From Octopus vulgaris (Eukaryota), in assembly GCA_951406725.2 (NCBI GenBank), contig OX597843.1, forward strand, positions 6,386,001 through 6,450,000: a DNA stretch of 64,000 bases, written 5' to 3'. This document shows, piece after piece, positions 4,945 to 39,400 of the stretch (position 1 is its first letter; every line of letters starts with the position of its first letter). The notes beneath the pieces were generated by a model that worked only from the letters and a program-made list of their open reading frames with translations, made no database searches and had not been told where the DNA came from. A program made the position numbers and the translations under genes.

Positions 4945-5495
4945 TTAACATATTATGCAGTGATCGACTTTTTCCGCAATTGACGGACTTTCTGCTTTGC
5001 CAGTGGCTGGTGGTACCGGTGCTGGACTGGGGGCCGGCGTAGCTGCTGTGGTTGTTGTTGGTGTCGATGGGGGTGGAGTCGGTGCGGGGACGCCGCCAGG
5101 GGACGGAGCAGCGTTGGGAGTTAAAGACGATGGAGCGTCACCGATTTCCACCGCGTCCATAACAATGCTGTCCTCCTCCATCTGCTGCTCGGGGTCGCCC
5201 TCGGCGTTGTCTATGGAGAGCAAAGCATCCTCGCCCTCCGTCGTGCAGTATTTCAGCTCAGACATTTCCGTGGCCATTTCTGCAAGCTCGATTTTTTCCT
5301 CGACACAAGCGCCCTCTCCCCGTCGCTGGGATTCCGCCACATCTCCATCACCGCCATGGGCCCTCTCCCCTTTTTCGTCTCCCTCTGATGGTACCCCGGC
5401 ATCATCACCATTATTCTTATTCGGGTCTGCGTAACCATCTTCCTCGGCATTCATCATCGTACCATGACAGCATTCTCCGATTTCGGTTCCAATCT
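4945..5495 (-). CDS. Probable alternative last exon of CLIP1: 183-aa acidic then Pro/Thr-rich tail ending DHCIIC* (CaaX-like)
   Basis: Strong U-rich acceptor (tgtattttttgtcAG) in phase 1, matching the exon L donor; non-repetitive GC-rich ORF. Assignment to CLIP1 is inference. Confidence 0.65.
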
Positions 5496-5769
5496 CTGAC
5501 AAAAAATACAAAAAAGAAACAAAAAAAACAAAAACAACAGAATTACACAGGTACCACATGAGAGATCGTCAATCAATTTGGCTCAAATGCCCCACACCCA
5601 CCTTCCATGTAAAACCAGCCATGCCCACCCCCAAAATTATTCACTTCTATTTTTCTCCCATCAGCCAGATATTGGTTTCAAATTTCGACGCAAGGCCAGC
5701 AACTTTGTGAGAGGGCAGAAGTTGATTACATCGACCCCAGTGTTACAACTGGTACTCATTTTGCTCTTT

Positions 5770-14185: not shown

Positions 14186-14232
14186 TCAAAACGTTTCGTC
14201 CACATCACAGTCGGAGGTCTGGTGTCCAAAAA
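14186..14232 (-). CDS. CLIP1: CLIP1 canonical last coding exon: (V)[14 protein letters not shown]
   Basis: tttgctttgcAG acceptor, phase 1; completes CCHC knuckle 2 and the EEY/F-type DETF terminus. Confidence 0.95.
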
Positions 14233-23000: not shown

Positions 23001-26000
23001 TATATGCTTCCTATATATATATATATATTTTTATATACCTATATATTTATATATTACTTTATACTATATTTTTACGTTTTACCTTCTAGGTGTTGTAATG
23101 GTTTAAAAAAAAAAAATATTTTTCTTAATCGCTAAAGTATTAACTTTTAACCGTGATGAACTGTATTCACATCTATTCACACATTTTTTTCTCACACTTT
23201 CTTATATGCTTGTACAGATGAATTATATTCCATCTTCCGTGATGTCATAAATGTATATTCTATGATTAAATGTTCGAGATATGAAATGTTATGCGGATGA
23301 CCTTGCAGTTGTTTGTTCTATAACCTTAGTTTGATATGTCTCATTCAATTGAGCACTTCTATAGCAGTCCTATTAAACATTTTGTTCCTGATAAGAAACA
23401 ATCACTTTATTATTGATATATAGCTACACATACACATATATATGTTTGTCTCACTGTATAAAACGCATCCAGTCCACACTGCAAAGTGACTGGCAGTAGA
23501 AATGGTGTCCAGCTGTAAAAAATCTGCCTCAAATTCTACCTAAACCGATGCAAAGCAAGGAAAAACAGTCATTAAAACAAGCTGAGCAAGAAGGAAGTTG
23601 AGGCCAACGTTGGTTGTGTCAATAACATCAACAGAAATATGAAATTTTTTTTGAGTAAACCACACCACCATATCTTGTCCATCTTGACCTCAAGGAGCAG
23701 TTTTAAAGGTTCAGACCTTGTACACTGTAGCTATTATATTAAGGGATGTAGAACTTGCAATCATATCAGCTTGCCAGAGATAGCAGCTAAATCTCATTCA
23801 GATCACATCTGTTGTCTTAAAAAGAAAAGGATGGTGCTGTGTAACAATAGGATAATGTTGTCTTAGATACACTGTGCCTTAATCTAACACAGGGTCTACT
23901 TTATCAGTTGACTTTAGGCCAAACAACAAGGGGAGGAAGACATTAGATAATGTACACCAAGATAGTCTATGCCTCATTGAAATACGGGGTTGTCACTACT
24001 GGAACGTCTTTGATCATAGCTCTGCTGGTTCAGAACTGCCTCGGGCTAAACATCAAGGAAGGACACATTACATAATGTAGTCCTAGATACACTATGCCTG
24101 AATAAAAAGACGGGATGGTCACAGCTGGAACATTTTTGATCATTGGTCTGCTGCATTAGGATTGACCTTGGGCTAAACAACAATAAGGGAGAACACGTTA
24201 GATAATGTAGTCCTAGATACACTATGCCTGAATAAAAGACAGGATGGTCACAGCTGGAACATCTTTGATCATAGGTCTTTCTGGATCAGGACTGACCTGT
24301 GATTAAACAACAACAACACACACAAACAAACCAGTAGAACGTTCCAGAAGGATTCTAAATGAATTTCTTAAAAAGCAGACACGGTTTCCATAAGGACCGT
24401 CATGTAGAAGAGAGAGTAAGAGCTGAGGGAAAAGGTGCCGGCGAACCGGCGCCACAGGGTGTGGTCGGGGACGACAAGTAGGAACTTGGCCATTTTCAGT
24501 GGCCCGTCGAAGAGAAACGGCTTTGGAATCAAAGAGCTGAACAGATGGAACCAGGGTAGTGTTGTCAGAGTGGTGGAGGTGGTGGTGTTGGAAGAAAAGT
24601 GGTAGTGTTCGTGGTGGTGGTGGCGGTGGTGGTGTTGGCGTGGCGAGAACGACCTACCTTCACAGATTTCGCAGTAGGCTCTCTCCTGTTTGGGAGTGCC
24701 ATGGTACTGGGTGCACGGTGGACTGTCAGACATGGTCTGCTGCGGACAGTCCTCGGTGTCGTGTTTGTCAAATTCTTCACAGATATCACAGAAAAGTCGA
24801 AGTGTGACAAGCGGATCTTTCCTGGAAAAACAACAACAACAACAACAATTATTATCATTTCTTTCATTGGCCTCAAGGGCCTACATGCAAACAACATGAA
24901 ATGACAAAACAGGACGATACAAAGGGTTTTAAACCGTGTGGCACATAAAAGGCACCATTCGAATGTGATTGTTACCAGCGCCGCCTTACTGGCACTCGAG
25001 CCCTGTGCTAGTAGAGTGTTAAGAGCACCATCCGAGTGTAATCGTTGCCAGAGCAGCTAACTGGCCTCTGTGCCGGTGGCACGTAAAAGGCACCAGTCAA
25101 GCATGGTCGTTACCAGCATCGCCTTACTGGCACCTGTGCCGGTGGAATGTGTAAAAAGATTCGAGCAAGGTCGTTGACAGTACCGCCTGACTGGCCCCCG
25201 TGCTGGTGGCACGTAAAAAGCACCCACTACACTCTCGGAGTGGTTGGCGTTAGGAAGGGCATCCAGCTGTAGAAACTCTGCCAGATCAAGATTGGAGCCT
25301 GGTGCAGCCATCTGGTTTGCCAGCCCTCAGTCAAATCGTCCTTCAGCTGGTCAGATCCTGTCAAATCCTCCAACCCATGCCAGCATGGAAAAACAGACGT
25401 TAAATGATGATGGTATACAAATGTAAAGCCGAAGTGGTTACCTTTTGTCATTGTGGGCCTCGTCATCTTTCACGTCACCATTCACAAGGGCATCCAAACG
25501 AGACTTGAGGTTCTCGTTCTGCATGTGAAGATAGACAATCTCAGACTTCAGCAATTCAATCTGGAAAACAAGACGAGATGTTGTGATGCTCATGCCTTTA
25601 CGCCACAATAATAGCAGTTGTTATTCTTTAGACTTGGGGCATCCCTAATAGACACCCTTATGAGCATAAGAGTTTCCACGTGTGGCCATCCTGTTTTTTG
25701 AACCACATTAAGTAATGTTCTATCATTTTTTCTATATACAGAGAATTCTACACCACCATCCTAACAACTATCTGTCCCATTTTTGTTCACATACATCTAC
25801 AACACTATCCTCACAACACCCCACAACACTAAAACGCTATCCTCACAACACCCCAAACACTAAAACACTATCCTCACAACACTAAAACGCTATCCTCACA
25901 ACATCCCACCACACCACCCCACAACACTAAAACACTATCCTCACAACATCCTACCACACCACCCCACAACACTAAAAAACGCTATCCTCACAACATCCCA

Positions 26001-27653: not shown

Positions 27654-30600
27654 GCATGTCAGTAGCACAGAGAAGTACTTTTCACTGCTGTGCCCAGTCC
27701 ATGTGGCTGTAACTAGGGACCACCTGCAACAACGTAATCATAAAACTCACCTCCATTACACTTTCTTCATTTTCTTTCTTCAGTTGTGAAACAGCACTGT
27801 CTGTTGATAGAGAACAAAAGCAGAGGGGTCAGTTCGGTCGCATACCCTTCCCCATCTCTATTTTCAGTGGGGTTGAGGGGGAACTTGAGGGAGATTTGGC
27901 TACTATTTTTCACAAGTTCAGAGACAACACAATTCTATATTTCTGTGATGAGGAATTTATTCTGCGAGGGATTGCTGAAAAGTTGCTGGTTTTTAAGGAT
28001 ATCACGAAAGGCCTGGTTGGAGGCACAATCTTCCAAGTTCTTTTATAGGGTTTAGAAAAACTGAAGGACCGCTGCAATAAGTGTGTGAATCTACGCGACT
28101 CTACTGCATTAACCAACATCTTGATCTACTACACTATGCCTGTCACGGGTCACAACAGAGAGAATATTTGGTTTTGTTTTTCTTAATGTTTGTTGGTTAT
28201 GAATTACTGACAAGGTTGTAGGACATTGCAATCAGCAAATTAGCCATAGAATAATCCTTTCTACTACAAACACAAAACCTGAAGTTTGGGGGAGGGGGCT
28301 AGTTGATCCCATCAACCCCCCAGGGTTTGACTGGTACTATTTTATCAACCTGGAAAGGACTGTTGTCCCATCTAGGGGGGGACAACACACTTACATTACA
28401 GAATCCAGGGAATTAGCCTTATGAGCCTAGAGCTTGGTAAGGCCCTTGAGGCATTGGCTTTAGTGGTCAAGATATTCAACTCAAGATCCTAAGATTGGGG
28501 TTTCAATTCCTGGACTGAGCAACTGATTGTGTTCTTGAGCAAAACATTTCACTTCACGTTGCTCCAGTCCAAATGAAAAAACCAGGGACAGACCAGGGTC
28601 CCATCCAGGGAGGATAATATAACCCGATAAACTGGCCCTTATCAGCTTGTGGCACAGCAAGGACCTTTGATACCCACAGCCTACCAGATACCCTCGCTCT
28701 AATATGTACCCTCTCCTATCACATACACACCCTTACTATTAGGTACCCAAAGGTAAGAGGGGGGAGCTGTTTAAAGCTGTACCATTCTAAAGACAGAGAC
28801 TTACCATCCTCAGAGGTATCAGCATCACCATTGGCTAACGAGTGGCCAGCTGGGGCATTTTTCTGAGCTAATTGCTCCTCGAGGGCCTTGACCTTCTCCA
28901 GAAGTTCCTTGTTTTCTTTCGATAGAGATTCTGTTAAAGAACTGGAGTTTTCTTTTAACCGGCTGTTTTCTTTCTGAAGTTGTTTCATCTGCAAAGAACC
29001 AAAAAAAACCATAAGAAAATTATAAACCAAAAAAACAAATAAACAGGAGCAGACGGGTGATCCCTTATGAAGATCTTAACGTTTCCAGGGGACCCAGGCA
29101 TGGCTGTGTGGTAAGAAGCTTGCTTCCCAGTGACACGGTTCTGGGTTCAGTTCCACAGCATGGCACCTTGGGCAAGGGTCTTCTACTATAGCCTCAGGCT
29201 AACCGAAGCCTTGTGAGTGGACTTGGTAGATGGAAACCGAAAGAAGCCCATCATATAGCAAGTGTCTTCTACTAAACCCTTGCGAGTGGACTTGGTAGAT
29301 GGAAACTGAAAGAAGCCCATCATATATATCGTCATCATTGCTTGATGTCCGCTTTCCCTGCTGGCATGAGCTGGACGGTTTGACATGGAACTGGCCAGCA
29401 AAGAGCTGTCCAGACTCCAACCGTCTGTTGGGGCAGGGTTTCTGTGACTGGATGCCCTTCCTTTTAAGATCTTTGTAATGTGTGTGTGTGTGTGTGGGGG
29501 ATCTCCCACCATCACTTGAAAACCAGTGTTGGTGTGTTTACATCCCTCTAACTTAGTGGTTCAGCATAAGTGACCAATAGAATAAGTACCAGGTTTTAAA
29601 ACCAAAGGAGTACTGGGGTCAATTTATTTGACCAATGTCCTTGAAGGTGGTGCCCCAGCATGGCCATAGTCAAATGACTAAAACAAATACTCTTTTGTTC
29701 TTTTACTTGTTTCAGTTATTTGACTGTGGCCATACTAGAGCACCGCCTTTAGTCAAGCAAATCGACCCCAGGACTTATTCTTTGGAAGCCTAGTACTTAT
29801 TCTACACACACACATACGATGGGTTTCTTTCAGTTTCCATCTACCAAATCCACTCATAAGGCTTTGGTCAGTCCAGAGCTACAGTAGAGACACTTGCCTA
29901 AGGTGCTGCACAGTGGGACTGAACCAGAAACCATTCGGTTACAAAACAGACTTCTCAACTACTCAGTCATCCATCAAAAAGCCCCATCATCATCATCATT
30001 GTTCGACTGTGGTCGAGACAATGGAATTTACCATGCTACGCCAGACTTCACGGTCCATCATGGCATTACGGAGGTCCTGTTGCTGGATGCCTGTATCCCT
30101 GGAGATTACATCAGGGTAGGAGAGTGTGCGCCCTCTGGTATTGCGAGTAGATGGCTTCCAGAGGAGAAGAGTAGAAATTACCTCTTTTTCAGCTCTACAA
30201 CAATGTCCAGCAAACTGGACTCTCCTACCTTTCACAAGAGATGACACAGGTGGTAGTTTCCCATATATTTGCATTTTGGTTGGATGAGGCTTCCACGAGA
30301 GATTTTGAGCTCTCGTAAGGAGGCGAGTATAGGTTCCATCCAATCACCTCTCAAGCCCCACCCAAACCATGCCAGCAGAGAAAAGCAGACACACACACAA
30401 AAAAAAAAAAACAGAAAGAAAGAAGGAAAACGGCTCCGCTGCTCTCAAAGAATCAAATGATTGCAGACCTACCTGGTTGGACTGGCTGGTCAGCTTGGAA
30501 TCTCTCTCTTGGAGAGCTCCTGATCTCAATTCCACCTGGTCAACAAGGGCTTTCTTTTCTGATTCGATTTCTTTTAACTGAGCACTGTATCTGGTGAAAT

Positions 30601-30879
30601 AAGGGAGACGCCTTAAGGATTTGCTTTTGCTCTCCTTTGGGAGGATGTGTGTGTGTGTGTGGGGGGGGTATGTGGGAATTCATGAAGTGGGGCATAGGGG
30701 TCACAGGATCTTCAGACAGCAATGGATAATATTAACTGCATATATATATATATGCACACAGACACACACAAATACATATATGTATACACATAAACACATA
30801 TACAAGCACGTATACACACGCACTCTAACATATGTATACACACACATGTACTTATATATTTATACCCATCCATCTATAC

Positions 30880-30926
<47 letters not shown>

Positions 30927-33900
30927 GGAGTAAACACATAAATGTGAAACAAGGTGGAAAAAAGAGTACTCAAATACCAGTGGTAGAGTAATATGCTTTA
31001 TTTAAGCAGCAGAAAATTCAACAAAACCTGTTACTCTGAGTTTCCCGTTGCCGTTCATCAGACAGTTTTTTCTCGCAAAAACTCTCCGATGAATGGCAAC
31101 GGGAAACTCAGAGTAACAGGTTTTGTTGAATTTTCTGCTGCTTTAAAAAAGCATATATATATATATACCCACCTAAATATATATAGATATATAATGACGA
31201 TGACATACATATACACATGTACACACATGCACAAACACACGTATGCATATATCCACACACACATAATATACATACACATACAAATATATAGCATATTGTC
31301 AACAGGTACACACTCAGTGTATTGCGGGTCGACATGATGGGCACACACTGGATGATGGACAGATCCACATTCTTTGAAAACATACATGTGAGTGTGTGTG
31401 TGTATATATATACACACACCCACACAGAGTTGTAGGCAGATAAATATACAAATACAAACATTAATGTGGGTATATATATATATATATATATATACATATA
31501 CACACACATTTCCATAGAGAATATATGCATGATAAATTATGAAGGAACATCTCCATAGAGATACTGAAAGTTAAAATGAACTTCCACACAGAGAAATGTA
31601 AAAATAAATCCACAAAGTGGAGGTTGGATGTAGCAAAATTTCCACACGGAAGACAGACGATACAAAATTAACACAGAAACATTTCCACAGGTCTGGTCAA
31701 TGACAATATATGAAAACAAAAATTTTACAAAATCTACACACTGTGGAAATACTTTGTTGTGTGTACCACCACCTTTATGGACCGACTTTCCACAGAGGTG
31801 GCGAACGCAACAATATTTACACACATAAAGCATTTCTATAGTGGGTTGGATGCAACAAAATTTCTACACACAAAACAATGCATTTTTACAGAGGTGATGA
31901 ATGATAAAAAGTTCTACACAGATTTTGGATGCAACTAAATGTACACACAGCAAAAAAAAAAAAAAAAAAATTCCACAGCAGTGTTGGATGATAGAAGTTT
32001 ACACTCAGAAAAAGTATTTCCACAGAGGAATTGGATGCAACAAAATTTGTACAAAAAGCATTTCCACAGAGGTAAAGGATGCAACAACATTTACACAAAA
32101 AGAAGGCACTTCCACAGAGGTGTTGACTGATAACATTTACAGACAGACAAAGCATTTCCACAGAAGTGGTAGGTGATAAGATTAACATAGACAGAAAGTA
32201 TTTCCACAGAGGTAGGGATGCAACAAAATTTACACACACGTAGAAAAAATATTTCCACAAAAACAGTGAAACACACACAAAGAAAGCGTTTCCGTTGAAG
32301 TGATGGATGCAACAAAGGCGACGGACAAAGACAGATTTTCCACAGTGGTAAAAATGGATGCTACCAGGTTTTTACCCACTGAGAACAATTGTCCACAGAA
32401 AGTGGTGGGTGCCAATGAGTTTGCACAATGCAAACTATATCGAAACCCAGTTCTTAAGAAAATACAGAAATGGCAAAAAAATGATGCGGAAGAATTTACA
32501 AGTTTCCACAGACAAATACCATCCGCTACAAATTTTTATATCAGAGATAGCCATTTAGCTCTGAGGTTTTCCAGAGATGGAAGGGGACTGGAAAGATGTG
32601 GTTGGGGTGTTCATGCCTTGTCAAGAAGCATCATTGTTTGATATGCTATTTGATAATCCTAAATTTTAAGAGGATAATCCTATATTTTAAATTGACAATT
32701 CTATATATTAAGCTGATAATTTGATAATTCAAACTGATAACCAACGAATGTTTCAGAATTAAAAACCATGAAAAAACCAGGATGTAATTACATGGGGTGC
32801 ACCCTGGTGACCAGTTATCGTAAGGGAGATAACAATTTCTGAATAAAAGATGCTGATATTCTATGCATTGTAGCAACAAGACTTGACTGGCCTGATGCTT
32901 TCGTGTTGTCGTGGCTGGATGCTTTCCACTGATGAATTCCAGTAAAATGAAATCACGGGATACAGCAATTCCATGCGATTGGGAAGCAAACCTTTTACCA
33001 TACCTGCACACCTGTGCTTGCATTTTATTATTTTTTGGTCACTCATTACAAAGATAGAGGTGCGTGGCTTAATGGTTAGGGGTGTTGGACACATGACTGT
33101 ACGATTGTGGTTTCAATTCCTATACTGGGCATTGCATTGTGTTCTTGAGCAAAACACTTCGTTTCATGTTGTTCCAGTTCACTCAGTTGGCAAAAATGAG
33201 TAACCCTGCGACAGACTGGCGTCCCATCCAGGGGGGGGGGTAGTATACACGGCATGGAAATTAGGAAACCAGCCCTTATGTGTTTACATGACTTGGGAAG
33301 GAACTCAACTGTTACATTGTTACATTACAAAGATCCAGAGGCAATCATGTGTGGTGCCATTTCATTCTTATTAGAACTCTTCCGCATAACGTAATGTGAG
33401 GCAAAGGAAATTAGACCAAATGGAACACTTTTATTAAAATACAAAAAAAAAAATAAATAAATAAAATTGAAAAATAAAGTATAAAAGAAATGAAGAAATA
33501 ACAACAAAAACAACAATATTAAAAAGAAATGGAGAAAACAAACCCAGGCAACAATATGATGATGCTGATGTTGTTGTTGTTAAACCAAGCTACTTAACCT
33601 TTAGCACACATAGGTGCATCATGTTGCCGTATGAGTTTTCTCCCCTGTAGCTGCAAGCACATTGTGTTACACTGAGAGGGGAGAAAACTGGTATGGTGAC
33701 ATTATGCGTCTACAGCATGCTGAAGGTTAACAACAACAACAACAACAACAATAATAGATTACGATGACCATAACAGCAGTAGAAACAACATCGTCAAGAC
33801 CCATGCTGACTGATACTAACGACGATGACCACAACACCAACAGAACTTTCAGAGAATTTCCTTACCATTTTTTTGATGTAGATTGTGATGAGGATGGTGG

Positions 33901-36406
33901 TGGTGGTGGTGGTGGTGGTCACAGGATTTGAAAATGGAGGAAAGAATGTGATGAGAGAAGGCGGTGGATGGGACATAATGAAAGAGGGAGAACAAGGGGC
34001 AAAAATACGATTGTTAATAATGTCATGGAGACGGGATGTCACAGATGAGAGAAGGTCATATATCGTTGCTATTATGCAAAAGTGTTGTAAGTCCAAAATA
34101 TTGCTTTTTTCAGAAAAGGCAAAAATAGTTTCACCGTTCCATAGCAAAACCTTTCTACTACGCTTTGACGATTTTTGATATCTTGGCATCTGAAGCAGAT
34201 GGAGATACGACAGTTTGACTAAAAGAACAGGCTGTTGCAAGCAAAAATAAATATTGAAAAAAATGCATTTGGCCAAATTTGGACACACGGCAGATTAACA
34301 TAATAGCAACGATATATATATATATATATCTGGCGAGCTGGCAGAAACGTTAGCACGCCGGGTGAAATGCTTAGCAGTATTTCGTCTGCCGCTACGTTCT
34401 GAGTTCAAATTCCGCCGAGGTCGACTTTGCCTTTCATCCTTTCGGGGTCGATAAATTAAGTACCAGTTATGCACTGGGGTCGATATAGTCGACTTAATCC
34501 GTTTGTCTGTCCTGTTTGTCCTCTCTGTGTTAGGTCCCTTGTGGGTAGTAAAGAAATATATATATATATATATATATCTGGCTGCTATTTTCAGCATGGC
34601 AGTATCTCGTAGATACCCTAAGTTATAATTCTAATAATAATTATTACCTTTTAAGGATTTTATTTCCATGCTGGCCACTTAATGAGATCGTTATTTAATT
34701 TAAATTAACGATCTTATCCTTATTTATATGAATTTAACATCTCCGCAGTAAATACAATCATCATCATCATCATCATCATCATCTTTTAGCGTCCGTTCTC
34801 CATGCTAGCATGGGTTGGACGGAATTCAACTGAAGCCTTCAGGCTTCCCAGACCCCAGTTGAACCGTCCAACCCATGCTAGCATGGAGAACGGACGCTAA
34901 AAGATGATGATGATGATGATGATGATTGTATTTACTGCGGAGATGTTTTAACCGTATTGCACATGGAATTAAGAAGCGGGCATTTTAAACTGGTCATGAT
35001 GCATACGTGCATATATATGTATGTATGTATACATTCATATATGTAAGTATTTGTATGTATTTATGTTTCTCTCTGCGTATAGTCCACTGATGAGGCAAAG
35101 CATTTCTAAATGCAAAGTCAGAAATCCAGGATCGGGATTTATGCAGTAATTTTTTACTAGTTTTATTTTGTCTTTTTGTCTTCTCTACTTGTGCTATATG
35201 AACACTTTCCTTATTGTTGGTGGTGTTTAGCCCCAGGTCAGTCCTGATCCATTACACCTATGATCACTTTGATCATGTTCCAGCTGTGAGCATCCCGTCT
35301 TTTATTCAGACAGTGTACCTCGGACTACATTATTTAATGTGTTCCCTTTGTTGTTGTTTAGCCCCAGGTCTGTCCTGATCCAATGGACCCATGATCAAAG
35401 ATGTTCCAGCTGTGACCATCCCATCTATTATCCAGACACAGAGTATCTAGGACTACATTATCTAATGTGTCCTTTTGGTTTTAGAGTCAGATCTGGCTGC
35501 TATTTCCAGCGTAGTGGTATCTCTTAGATACCCTAAATTATAATTTTAATAATAATTATTACCTTTGAAGGTTTTTTATTTCCATGCTGGCCACTTGATA
35601 AGATCGATAATTAAATTAGCAATCTTATCCTTAATTATATAAATTTAAATTTATTTCGTGGGCTGGATATGGCTGGTTTAAATGTTAATAGTTTAAGTGA
35701 AATCCTCAAGCTCCCTCTCCCCAGCAGGAGCAGACCCCTGCCCCAAAGGGATAAAAGAGAAAAGGGTCAACCTACTGTTTGTGGATGTCCTGTAGTTTCT
35801 TTTCGAATTTTTCGTCTGCAAGCTGTAAAACAGAAACAAAAGGGGAGATAAACATTGGGAACTTAGTACGGTATTATCCATGCAGTTTCAAAATAAGGTG
35901 AATAAAATCAAAATAAGCAATAAGGATATCCAGAAGTAATACAGTACGATCGTTTCATGCAACTCCATTTAATTGAACAATGCAAATATTGCATCAATTT
36001 AAATGCAGAGCAATCCTCAGCTGCACAAAGACATAGAATTTAATTAAATTAGAACAGATGGACACATTTGTGTGTGTGTGTGAGAGTGTGTATGTGTGTC
36101 AGAATGTGTGTATGAGAGTGTGTGTGTGTGTGTGAGAGAGTGCATGTGTGTGTGTGAGAGGGTATATGTACATGAGTGTGCATGAGAGAGAGAGAAAGTG
36201 TGTAGGGGAGAGAAAGTGCATATATGTGCACACGCGAAAGAGAGAGAGAGAGAGGCAGAGAGTGTGTGCATGAGAGAGAGAGAGAGTGTGTGCATGTGTT
36301 TCAGAGCAAGTGTGTTCACACAAGAGTGTGTGTGTTTATAGGTGTATGGCAGAGTGTGTGTGTGAGTGTGTTTGTGAGTGTGTGCGTATGGCAGAATGTG
36401 TGTGAG

Positions 36407-36441
<35 letters not shown>

Positions 36442-39400
36442 ACATTGTGTTTGCCTCACCTTTTGGTGATTCAGAAGTTGTTCCTTTGAAGCTGTGAGAT
36501 CTTCCTGAATCTTCTGCTTTTTACTTTCACTTTCCTCCACAGTTTGTTGCAGTTTCACTATTTCACTGTTGGCTTCGTTTCTGGAGAGAGAGAAAGAGAC
36601 AGACAGAGAGTGAGAGAGAGATAAAGACACACACACACACACACACTCATATATATTGTTAATATGGCAGGGTGACACTAAGATATATATGCATGTAAAT
36701 AATGTGCTTGAAAAGGTGCAAAAAAAAAACCCCAGTGAAAAGTGCTTAACACAAAAGCTTTCTTATTTCTTTACTGCCCACAAGGGGCTAAACACAGAGG
36801 GGACAAACAAGGACACACAAATGGATTAAGTCGATTATATCGACCTCAGTGCGTAACTGGTACTTATTTAATCGACTCAGAAAGGATGAAAGGCAAAGTC
36901 AACCTCGGTACAATAATTTGAACACAGAACGTAGCGGCAGACGAAATACCTATTTCTTTATTACCCACAATGTGGGCTAAACAGAGGGGACAAACAAGGA
37001 CAGACATAGGTATTAAGTCGATTACATCGACCCCAGTGCGTAACTGGTACTTAATTTATCGACCCGAAAGGATGAAAGGCAAAGTCGACCTAGGGGGAAT
37101 TTGAACACAGAACGTAGCAGCAGACGAAATACCACTAAGCATTTCGCCCAGAGTGCTAACATTTCTGCCATCTCACCGCCTTACGTAGATACAATATTTA
37201 CTTCTTTACTGCCCATAAGGGGCTAAACATAGAGGGTTAAAAAACAAGGACAGACAAACGGATTAAGTCAATTACATCGACCCCAGATCAGATTGGAGTC
37301 TGGTGCAGCCATCTGGTTCGCCAGTCCTCAGTCAAATTGTCCAACCCATGCTAGCATGGAAAGCGGACGTTAAACGCTGATGATGACACACAACAAAGAG
37401 AACATTAGATAATGTAGTCCTAGATACTCTATGTCTGGATAATAGATGGGATGGTCACAGCTGGAACATCTTTGATCATGGGTCCGTTGGGGCTAAACAA
37501 CAACAAAGGGGGCACATTAAATAATGTAGTCCGAGGTACACTGTCTGAATAAAAGACTGGATGCTCACAGCTGGAACATGATCAAAGTGATCATAGGTGT
37601 AATGGATCAGGACTGACCTGGGGCTAAACACCATCAACAATAAGGAAAGACACATTTGATAATTTAATCCGAGTTACATTATGCCTGAACAAAAGACAGG
37701 ATGGTCACTGTTGGAACGTCTTTGATCATAGATCTGCTACATGAGATCTGATGCAAGACACACAAAAGATTGAAGACAAAACCAATTTCAAACAAAAAGG
37801 AGAAAGCGTACAAGTTTACCAAGGAGTAAAGCAATGAAGAAATACTTACAGTTTCTCAGTTAAGGAGTTTGAGGTTTCCTCGTTGTGTAAAGATTGGGAT
37901 AAAGTTTTCTCTGAAGTGGCCAATTTTCCTTGTAATTTTTCAATCTGGAAAGACGAAAGAGCAAAGAGAGAGGCAGAAGATATTAGTTGGAGGATATCAC
38001 GTCAATGATGTAGGATGAGACGGTTGTGGGGAAATCCTGAAAAAACACCAATCGACCTCGTTCGCCAAGCCTTCAACCGACTCAATGCACGACTCTGGTC
38101 AAGATCTGAGATCCGACGCACCACCAAAGTACAGATCTACCAAGCAGTAGGGCGAACGATTCTTCTTTACGGCAGCAAGTCATGGCCGGCGAGGGTGGAA
38201 GATATTAAGTGACTAGAGTCCTTCGATCACCTCTGTCTACGCCGCATCCTTCGTGTCCGATGGCATCACTTTGTCTTTTGCGACACCAGTGCAGAATCAC
38301 CTCCCTCCGACAAGTCATCCTAACGAGACGTCTGCGTTGGCTGGGTCATGCCCTCCGTCGTCAACCAGGAGAATTTGCCCCAGTTCCCCTTCAGTAAAGA
38401 GCCGTCCTAGAATTTGGACCTGGAGATCTCCATTTCCAGCGACTTCGAGGGCCACCTCCCAGTGGTGTCGGGCGTCAACGAAGAGCCCTCCACTACAACA
38501 AGACGACCAAAGTTTTTTCTTTTTTTTTCACAAGGTCTGGGGTCTCCCATCCCTAAGCCCTAGCCCATCACCTAATCACCCTTACCCGTCTTGTTGCTTA
38601 ACAACAACAGCACTGTTAAGACAGATCCTGCTGATGGTATAAAACACTGGTTTTTCTATGCCAGCATGGGTTAGAGGAATACACATTACCGACACACTGA
38701 CATTTTTTTTTTTTTTTTACACAGCTGGATGCTCTTCCAGCTGCTAACCTTTATCTGTTCTTTCAAAAAAGAGTGTCCAGCACTGACCACTCACCTCTTT
38801 AGTCTTCTGTTCCACTGTAATGTCCAGTTGCTGCAGCTTGGCCTTCATCTCGGTCACACTGACCTGTGTCTGTCCTTGTTCTTGCTGCAGTCGGTTCTTT
38901 TCGCTCTTCAGTTCATTGTTTAGTTTCAGCATCTGGAGATGAGGAAGAGAGAAGATGATGATGATGATGAGGAAGAGAGAAGATGATGATGATGATGAGG
39001 AAGAGAGAAGATGATGATGAGGAAGAGAGAAGATGATGATGATGATGAGGAAGAGAGAAGATGATGATGATGAGGAGGAGGAGAGAAGATGATGATGATG
39101 ATGAGGAGGAGGAGACAAGATGATGATGAGGAGGAGGAGGAGGAGGAGGAGGAGAAAAGATGATGATGATGAGGAGGAGGAAGAGAGAAGATGATGATGA
39201 TGAAGAGAGAAGATGATGATGATGAGGAGGAAGAGAGACAGGGTGGTGGTGGTGAAATCGATCATTATACAATGTTATAGTAGCGTAGTGGTGGTGGTGG
39301 TAGTGTTCAGCGCTATTGGCAGTGTTTGGTGGCAGGCTCTTGTGCCGGTGGCACGTAAAAAGCACCCACTACACTCGCGGAGTGGTTGGCGTTAGGAAGG

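Follow-up and report, generated by a model that had tools for sequence, protein, structure and literature searches.

The DNA analysed here is a stretch of 64,000 nucleotides from the Octopus vulgaris contig OX597843.1, called the window below. Its minus strand carries the 3' half of the CLIP1/CLIP-170 gene. The zinc knuckle of CLIP1 (Pfam PF16641) is detected within the window at 24371-24880. Protein P0002 holds two PF01302 matches as well as PF16641; the CAP-Gly exons lie outside the window. In a protein search, one window exon was 100% identical to its match in the RefSeq CLIP1 cluster of O. sinensis, and tblastn with isoform X1 found the exons in normal gene order, including those named F, G, G2 and H here. 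The O. sinensis protein XP_036370725.1, a CLIP1 with CAP-Gly domains, coiled coil and zinc knuckle, matches the window exons nearly letter for letter. A literature search on octopus CLIP-170, judged by titles and the openings of abstracts, found nothing on the gene. Four exons matter for what follows.

37850..37944, minus strand: exon F, which would supply the donor if G and G2 were skipped; the right arm described below is 201 nt away.
36460..36580, minus strand: exon G, 121 nt, phase 2 to 0.
35776..35822, minus strand: exon G2, 47 nt, phase 0 to 2, spanned by one spliced-type contig in sequencing run X9.
30473..30590, minus strand: exon H, whose acceptor would be joined to F in a skip, with the left arm 4.6 kb away.

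Exon H has an additional acceptor 6 nt inside (30584), which fits RefSeq isoform X2. Both G and G2 agree, exon by exon, with the RefSeq protein of O. sinensis. Together they measure 168 nt, which is 56 amino acids or exactly 8 heptads, and skipping both keeps the frame.

The introns on either side of these two exons contain the following repeats.

35205..35475, plus strand: left arm, in the downstream intron, two units of a family of about 126 bp, lying within an older host repeat.
37402..37649, minus strand: right arm, in the upstream intron, two units with a 16-nt deletion, the likely donor of the left arm.
37650..37770, minus strand: an older, third unit that continues the right array in the same register as the right arm, without a counterpart on the left side.
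35150..35204, plus strand: 5' part of the host repeat that the left arm splits, matching the sequence upstream of the empty site at 4 of 6 loci.
35476..35650, plus strand: 3' part of the host repeat, on the far side of the insertion.
36764..37180, unstranded: abundant dispersed-repeat copies, which we take to be SINE-like; with 34331-34560 they make up another, older inverted pair that also surrounds G and G2.
34331..34560, unstranded: partner in that older pair, 11.5% divergent, with a predicted pairing of -355 kcal/mol.
34736..34947, unstranded: a near-perfect fold-back hairpin in the same intron as the left arm, 260 nt away from it; it is recent.

An earlier reading, made from the letters alone, had described the arms as near-identical inverted copies that share private variants and bracket exactly G and G2, 168 nt in all, with the frame preserved. 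The exon edges agree with the RefSeq protein, and the copies are indeed inverted and nearly identical. In a global alignment they differ by 6 mismatches and one 16-nt gap over 248 aligned nucleotides, the gap being sequence absent from the right arm. The longest exact match is 75 nt and sits just where the sequence-only reading had placed it, at 35221-35295 and 37559-37633. That reading gave the unit length as 120 bp; it measures about 126 bp. Homology between the arms spans the entire left arm and halts at the left-arm edges, stopping at 35468 on that arm.

The identity of the arms exceeds chance. Their first units are 0.9% apart, and among 224 full units the nearest one at another locus is 8.8-9.8% away. 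In unit 1 the arms share 8 columns seen in none of the other 222 full units, and unit 2 has 2 further columns private to both arms. A private 33-mer, with at most one mismatch allowed, has exactly two occurrences in the 2.8-Gb genome, one in each arm; its reversed control has none. In a genome search the best match to an arm was its partner, at 92% including the gap, and the next was at 87% among the best 40 of 1351 candidates scored. The sequence-only reading had allowed that the variants might be those of a subfamily common genome-wide. A common young subfamily is excluded as their source by the unit divergences together with the 33-mer count of two, both in the arms.

The family itself is satellite-like and is found as short tandem arrays, 55 of them with 283 units. 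The survey covered the window, 33 stretches chosen for holding the family, 27 other stretches of the same contig and 20 from other contigs. The family was present in all 33 chosen stretches, in 2 of the 27 and in none of the 20. Among the 55 arrays, starts and ends fall at variable points within the unit, as is expected for pieces copied out of existing arrays. The octopus satellite literature names no family of about 126 bp, going by the titles among the matches listed. An Rfam search over 30000-39000 gave 19 matches, all under the gathering score.

The older host repeat, to which both flanks belong, is interrupted by the left arm, an insertion of 271 nt. Other copies of that repeat continue into the outer flank of the left arm, for about 50 nt at 4 of 6 loci (two of these four being one place) and for only about 20 nt at the remaining two. 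A 28-mer of the empty site has 580 exact copies in the genome, and empty-site sequence also turns up as loose ends in three sequencing runs, among the matches listed. Compared with the empty site, the filled one lacks 7 nt and bears no target-site duplication. Inspection by eye showed no clear junction microhomology at either end. No joint across the left arm appeared among 15 of 137 joints, its flanks being high-copy repeats.

An insertion read against its empty site, and a unique donor nearby, are what mark a local templated inverted insertion, and both are found here. Probably, then, the left arm is a copy of two units of the right array, placed in inverted orientation 1.9 kb away during the repair of a break, and the RNA duplex predicted from it is accidental. 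We infer the direction of copying, from right to left, because the left arm begins mid-linker, where the same letters on the right continue into the older third unit.

The events would have begun with a DNA break within the older host repeat at the left site. Into this break, two units of the right array would then have been copied backwards, from 1.9 kb off, by a template switch or by synthesis-dependent insertion. After that, each arm would have diverged by about 1.2%, and the right arm would have lost 16 nt. At about 1.2% for each arm, compared with about 9% for the closest other unit in the sample, the copying would have come late in the life of the array.

A different account starts from two older, independent arrays, made alike by non-allelic gene conversion acting over the 1.9-kb spacer. 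Every array of the family is an insertion, so the empty site alone is no proof of copying from the neighbour, and both arms finish in a few degenerate-linker letters that differ. The conversion tract would however have to span the whole left arm, edge to edge. Control loci speak against it as well: in all three places where inverted arrays of the family are neighbours (L031, L032 and L050, about 0.3, 2.4 and 7 kb apart) there is no homogenisation, and the partner array is no closer than copies elsewhere. We consider conversion unlikely.

An assembly or polishing artefact is highly improbable: the region is repeat-dense and the chromosome small, but 6 substitutions and a 16-nt deletion separate the arms, the left-arm junctions are clean within the host repeat, and the private unit recurs in three independent DNA-type runs under three organism labels, which attests the unit variant rather than the two arms. 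A transposon with MITE or fold-back ends that carried the exons was also considered and rejected, as the outer flanks are unrelated, the 33-mer is private and the exons stand in normal gene order.

How often such pairs arise was gauged in 80 stretches of about 10 kb (799.5 kb in total), 33 of them picked for holding the family, with arms of at least 100 nt and a spacer of at least 200 nt. Inverted pairs with at most 3% divergence occur in 2 of the 80 stretches, with at most 4% in 4, and with at most 5% in 9. Private pairs, whose members are clearly closer to each other than to any other sampled copy, are uncommon, occurring in four stretches (L039, L040, L044 and L100). Three of these adjoin (TA)n runs and probably have another origin than the arms. 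One private pair encloses a 296-aa frame that has no Pfam match and may resemble Penelope-like elements. In this sample, which was partly chosen, private inverted pairs thus recur at about one in 200 kb, most of them probably of other origin.

Contigs with the private unit, at only 2 other letters, are present in the DNA-type runs X2, X4 and X6, which carry the organism labels A, B and C respectively. The X4 contig is left-arm-like at two sites and lacks the 16-nt deletion. From this it follows that the variants, and perhaps the arm pair too, predate the division into these organism labels; the arm pair may be older than a species split. Reading the X4 letter at 35321 as the ancestral state, with copying after A and B separated, was rejected, since the family majority at that position is a third letter. 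The run mapping, at 90% likeness, was crowded by repeats and took in 24 of 1304 loose ends and 32 of 21102 pieces.

Insertion of satellite arrays has been described before. In Drosophila, satellite arrays enter older repeats via proposed repair pathways (bioRxiv 10.1101/846238). The Rsp-like and 1.688 arrays there are likewise short, have variable ends, sit in one chromosomal region and lie inside an older repeat. Their junctions have 4-7 bp of microhomology and their donors are distant, whereas the octopus junctions have none that is clear and the likely donor is 1.9 kb away and inverted.

The two flanking introns hold one arm each, inverted to one another, and the duplex is predicted to be very stable, at -463 kcal/mol in the transcript sense, in support of the sequence-only reading. 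Competing partners of the arms are predicted at -346 to -355 kcal/mol. Distances from the arms to the F donor and to the splice sites they enclose range from 201 to 822 nt. In the splice sites themselves, the acceptors have 16-17 pyrimidines in 18 and the donors are ordinary GT; by pyrimidine count and donor letters, those of G and G2 resemble the sites of neighbouring exons.

Frame preservation alone is not unusual: of the 17 one- or two-exon units between exon B and exon I, 8 keep the frame, and in 2 of those the length is a multiple of 7 amino acids. In the window, a flanking inverted pair surrounds 2 of 23 one- or two-exon units, where the edges of the last three exons are approximate, which affects frame labels and leaves the pair count as it is. 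The other of the two units frameshifts. G plus G2 is the sole in-frame unit of the gene in the window with flanking inverted pairs, and it carries three.

Judged by anatomy only, the arms are an exon-flanking inverted repeat of the TBXT/Alu kind, and a sharper one than is usual. PMC10901737 provides the closest parallels. In mouse Tbxt, a 220-bp reverse copy placed in an intron flanking exon 6 leads to skipping and shorter tails. TBXT AluSx1-AluY and the mouse alleles insRCS and insRCS2 have, as here, an inverted pair of 220-300 nt in the flanking introns, hundreds of nucleotides off, with an in-frame skip. In insRCS2, moreover, a reverse copy of the sequence of one intron was put in the other, which is again the octopus arrangement. 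For TBXT/Tbxt, an isoform with the exon skipped was demonstrated, and so was its need for the arms, whereas the octopus arms are known from sequence and prediction; they are also satellite-like, enclose two exons and belong to a cephalopod.

Genome-wide, inverted Alu pairs make repeat-derived intronic duplexes that straddle exons, as is predicted here (PMC13019944 and PMC13019027). In PMC13019944, removal of one Alu reduced skipping in 7 of 8 reporters, the drop ranging from about 1 to more than 40 PSI points. Exons with weak acceptors are reported to be the most prone to skipping by inverted Alus (PMC13019027). Alu pairs are independent retrotransposon insertions; the octopus arms are a private, near-identical pair, one likely copied from the other.

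The arms may give some in-frame skipping. A stronger version of this holds that the duplex makes at least 5% of CLIP-170 mRNA in some tissue skip G and G2, with ADAR editing likely opposing it. This is a claim about consequence and is compatible with a local-copy origin. In its favour are the stability of the predicted duplex and the short distance to the splice sites, a skip that keeps both frame and heptad register, and analogues tested in PMC10901737 and PMC13019944. CLIP1 isoforms are also numerous in other animals, with an oyster isoform numbered X29.

The transcript evidence runs the other way. G and G2 are both kept in all four full-length O. sinensis RefSeq isoforms, the other 2 members of the CLIP1 cluster ending short of this region; RefSeq models, like assembled contigs, do lose rare isoforms. 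The skip isoform was not seen in three protein searches, in which no other octopus cluster surfaced, and none of 3759 candidates passed as a shorter protein over the G and G2 region. The gene name was not found in the part of the supplementary files of PMC9699675 that was available. The acceptors are pyrimidine-rich, against the weak ones reported as most prone, and 4.6 kb separate the H acceptor from the left arm. The length of the segment stays within -11 to +20 amino acids in 20 distant orthologues, but these were chosen from at least 150 listed for near-full-length matches, a choice that favours kept length.

Run X9, guessed to be RNA, has depths of 0, 2.59, 12.2 and 3.34 across the bins at G2. 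These fit one contig that consists of exactly G2 plus the AG common to the end of exon G. It is probable that X9 shows G2 spliced in; linear and circular RNA fit alike, and a minor skip is still compatible. G2 is uncovered in the X4 and X6 contigs, which carries no weight either way.

On balance, working loop-out at this level is a possibility that we lean against. The skip cassette proposed by the sequence-only reading stands in that the frame is kept and exactly 8 heptads would be lost, and falls short in that every full-length RefSeq isoform includes both exons. Its larger idea, an RNA-structure switch for coiled-coil length, is not borne out: beside the four isoforms there are the probable splicing in of G2 in X9, ordinary splice sites and arms that look like the product of repair.

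The same arms might drive back-splicing of G and G2 into a 168-nt circle of some abundance. Reverse-complementary introns flanking the exons are reportedly involved in circRNA biogenesis (the work of Ivanov et al. in 2015), with ADAR expected to oppose this. Those systems share the complementary flanking introns with the octopus case, which is one of sequence only, in an animal where circRNAs are reported to be scarce. Here the back-splice sites lie 308 and 822 nt from the reverse-complementary flanks. As had been claimed earlier, the circle has one stop-free frame and no Met; in fact no frame has one. The back-splice joint was not seen in a mapped stretch that spans G2 only. In O. vulgaris, circRNAs are reported to be low overall, with 296 kept (PMC9699675). 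Such a circle seems quite unlikely.

The most specific outcome would be that the repair accident made a CLIP-170 isoform shorter by 8 heptads, its share set by ADAR editing and varying with tissue or temperature. This we regard as very unlikely. On the reading we favour, local copying during break repair would have left behind an RNA duplex by accident, one that is predicted to loop out two exons which most of the mRNA probably still contains. The pair would be tolerated in that any skipping keeps the frame and drops 8 whole heptads. Low-level skipping is a plausible by-product, and selection for skipping would not be needed to explain the observations.

The locus offers a clean, datable example of an exon-flanking inverted repeat that arose by local copying, probably, and not by two transposon insertions. 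The predicted junctions are sharp. If skipping is absent despite a near-perfect duplex of 250 bp, the locus would be an instructive negative example of how such duplexes are tolerated in octopus pre-mRNA. Should skipping prove real and be connected with editing, there would be a link between the high ADAR activity of coleoids and the splicing of a microtubule plus-end protein. If the share of a shorter isoform were indeed set by editing, this would be a natural version, in a cephalopod, of the reverse-copy experiment in Tbxt. Local inverted copying would then be a transposon-free route to new splice isoforms.

The two arms, near-identical inverted copies that flank CLIP1 exons G and G2, are built from units of a satellite-like array family of about 126 bp. 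In the genome searched, arrays of this family lie at about 2-7.3 Mb of contig C30, which holds the window, and at about 13.7-14.6 Mb of C28, and the best matches listed are all on these two contigs. None of 20 stretches taken from other contigs contains the family, which appears to be concentrated on small contigs. Among the titles of the matches listed from the octopus satellite literature, no paper naming it was found.

One private change common to both arms is a short palindrome, at window 35258-35277. It resembles a backward self-copy of some 10 nt of the unit, such as a micro template switch predating the duplication of the arms would leave. Other inverted structures are found in the window and in control stretches of about 10 kb each:

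Window 34736-34947: almost perfect fold-back, about 87-105 nt per arm, core without mismatches.
Window 30991-31156: hairpin, with arms of 80 nt that are 94% complementary and enclose a 6-nt loop.
L039:1795-3235: private near-identical inverted pair, enclosing a 296-aa frame.
L040:2087-2585: private near-identical inverted pair.
L100:4246-6387: private near-identical inverted pair.
L044:4244-8823: private near-identical inverted pair.

The host repeat has a second copy at 34576-34737, which the fold-back truncates; the fold-back is likely another recent template-switch scar. The hairpin arm is a repeat that is present at other loci too, and its Rfam match falls under the threshold. Three of the four private pairs adjoin (TA)n runs; the frame inside the L039 pair has no Pfam match.

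The host repeat itself, the older repeat split by the left arm, is perhaps a palindromic or fold-back element. This is suggested by its 28-mer, which on contigs C1 and C2 frequently occurs in close outward-facing minus/plus pairs, for example at C1:198658422-198658494.

The CLIP1 gene has two acceptors for one exon and two candidate last exons:

Exon H, window 30584 and 30590, minus strand: a pair of acceptors, 6 nt apart.
Window about 14186-14232, minus strand: near candidate last exon, by which the second zinc knuckle is completed and closes in the usual acidic-Phe end.
Window 4948-5496, minus strand: far candidate last exon.

The inner acceptor fits RefSeq isoform X2, which has 2 residues fewer. 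All four RefSeq models use the far last exon, which in place of the zinc-knuckle completion encodes a long acidic, proline-rich tail. Given that four proteins from the orthologue comparison (P0007, from oyster, P0014, P0029 and P0030) depart from the usual CLIP1 end at the same residue, the two last exons may represent a conserved alternative C-terminus.
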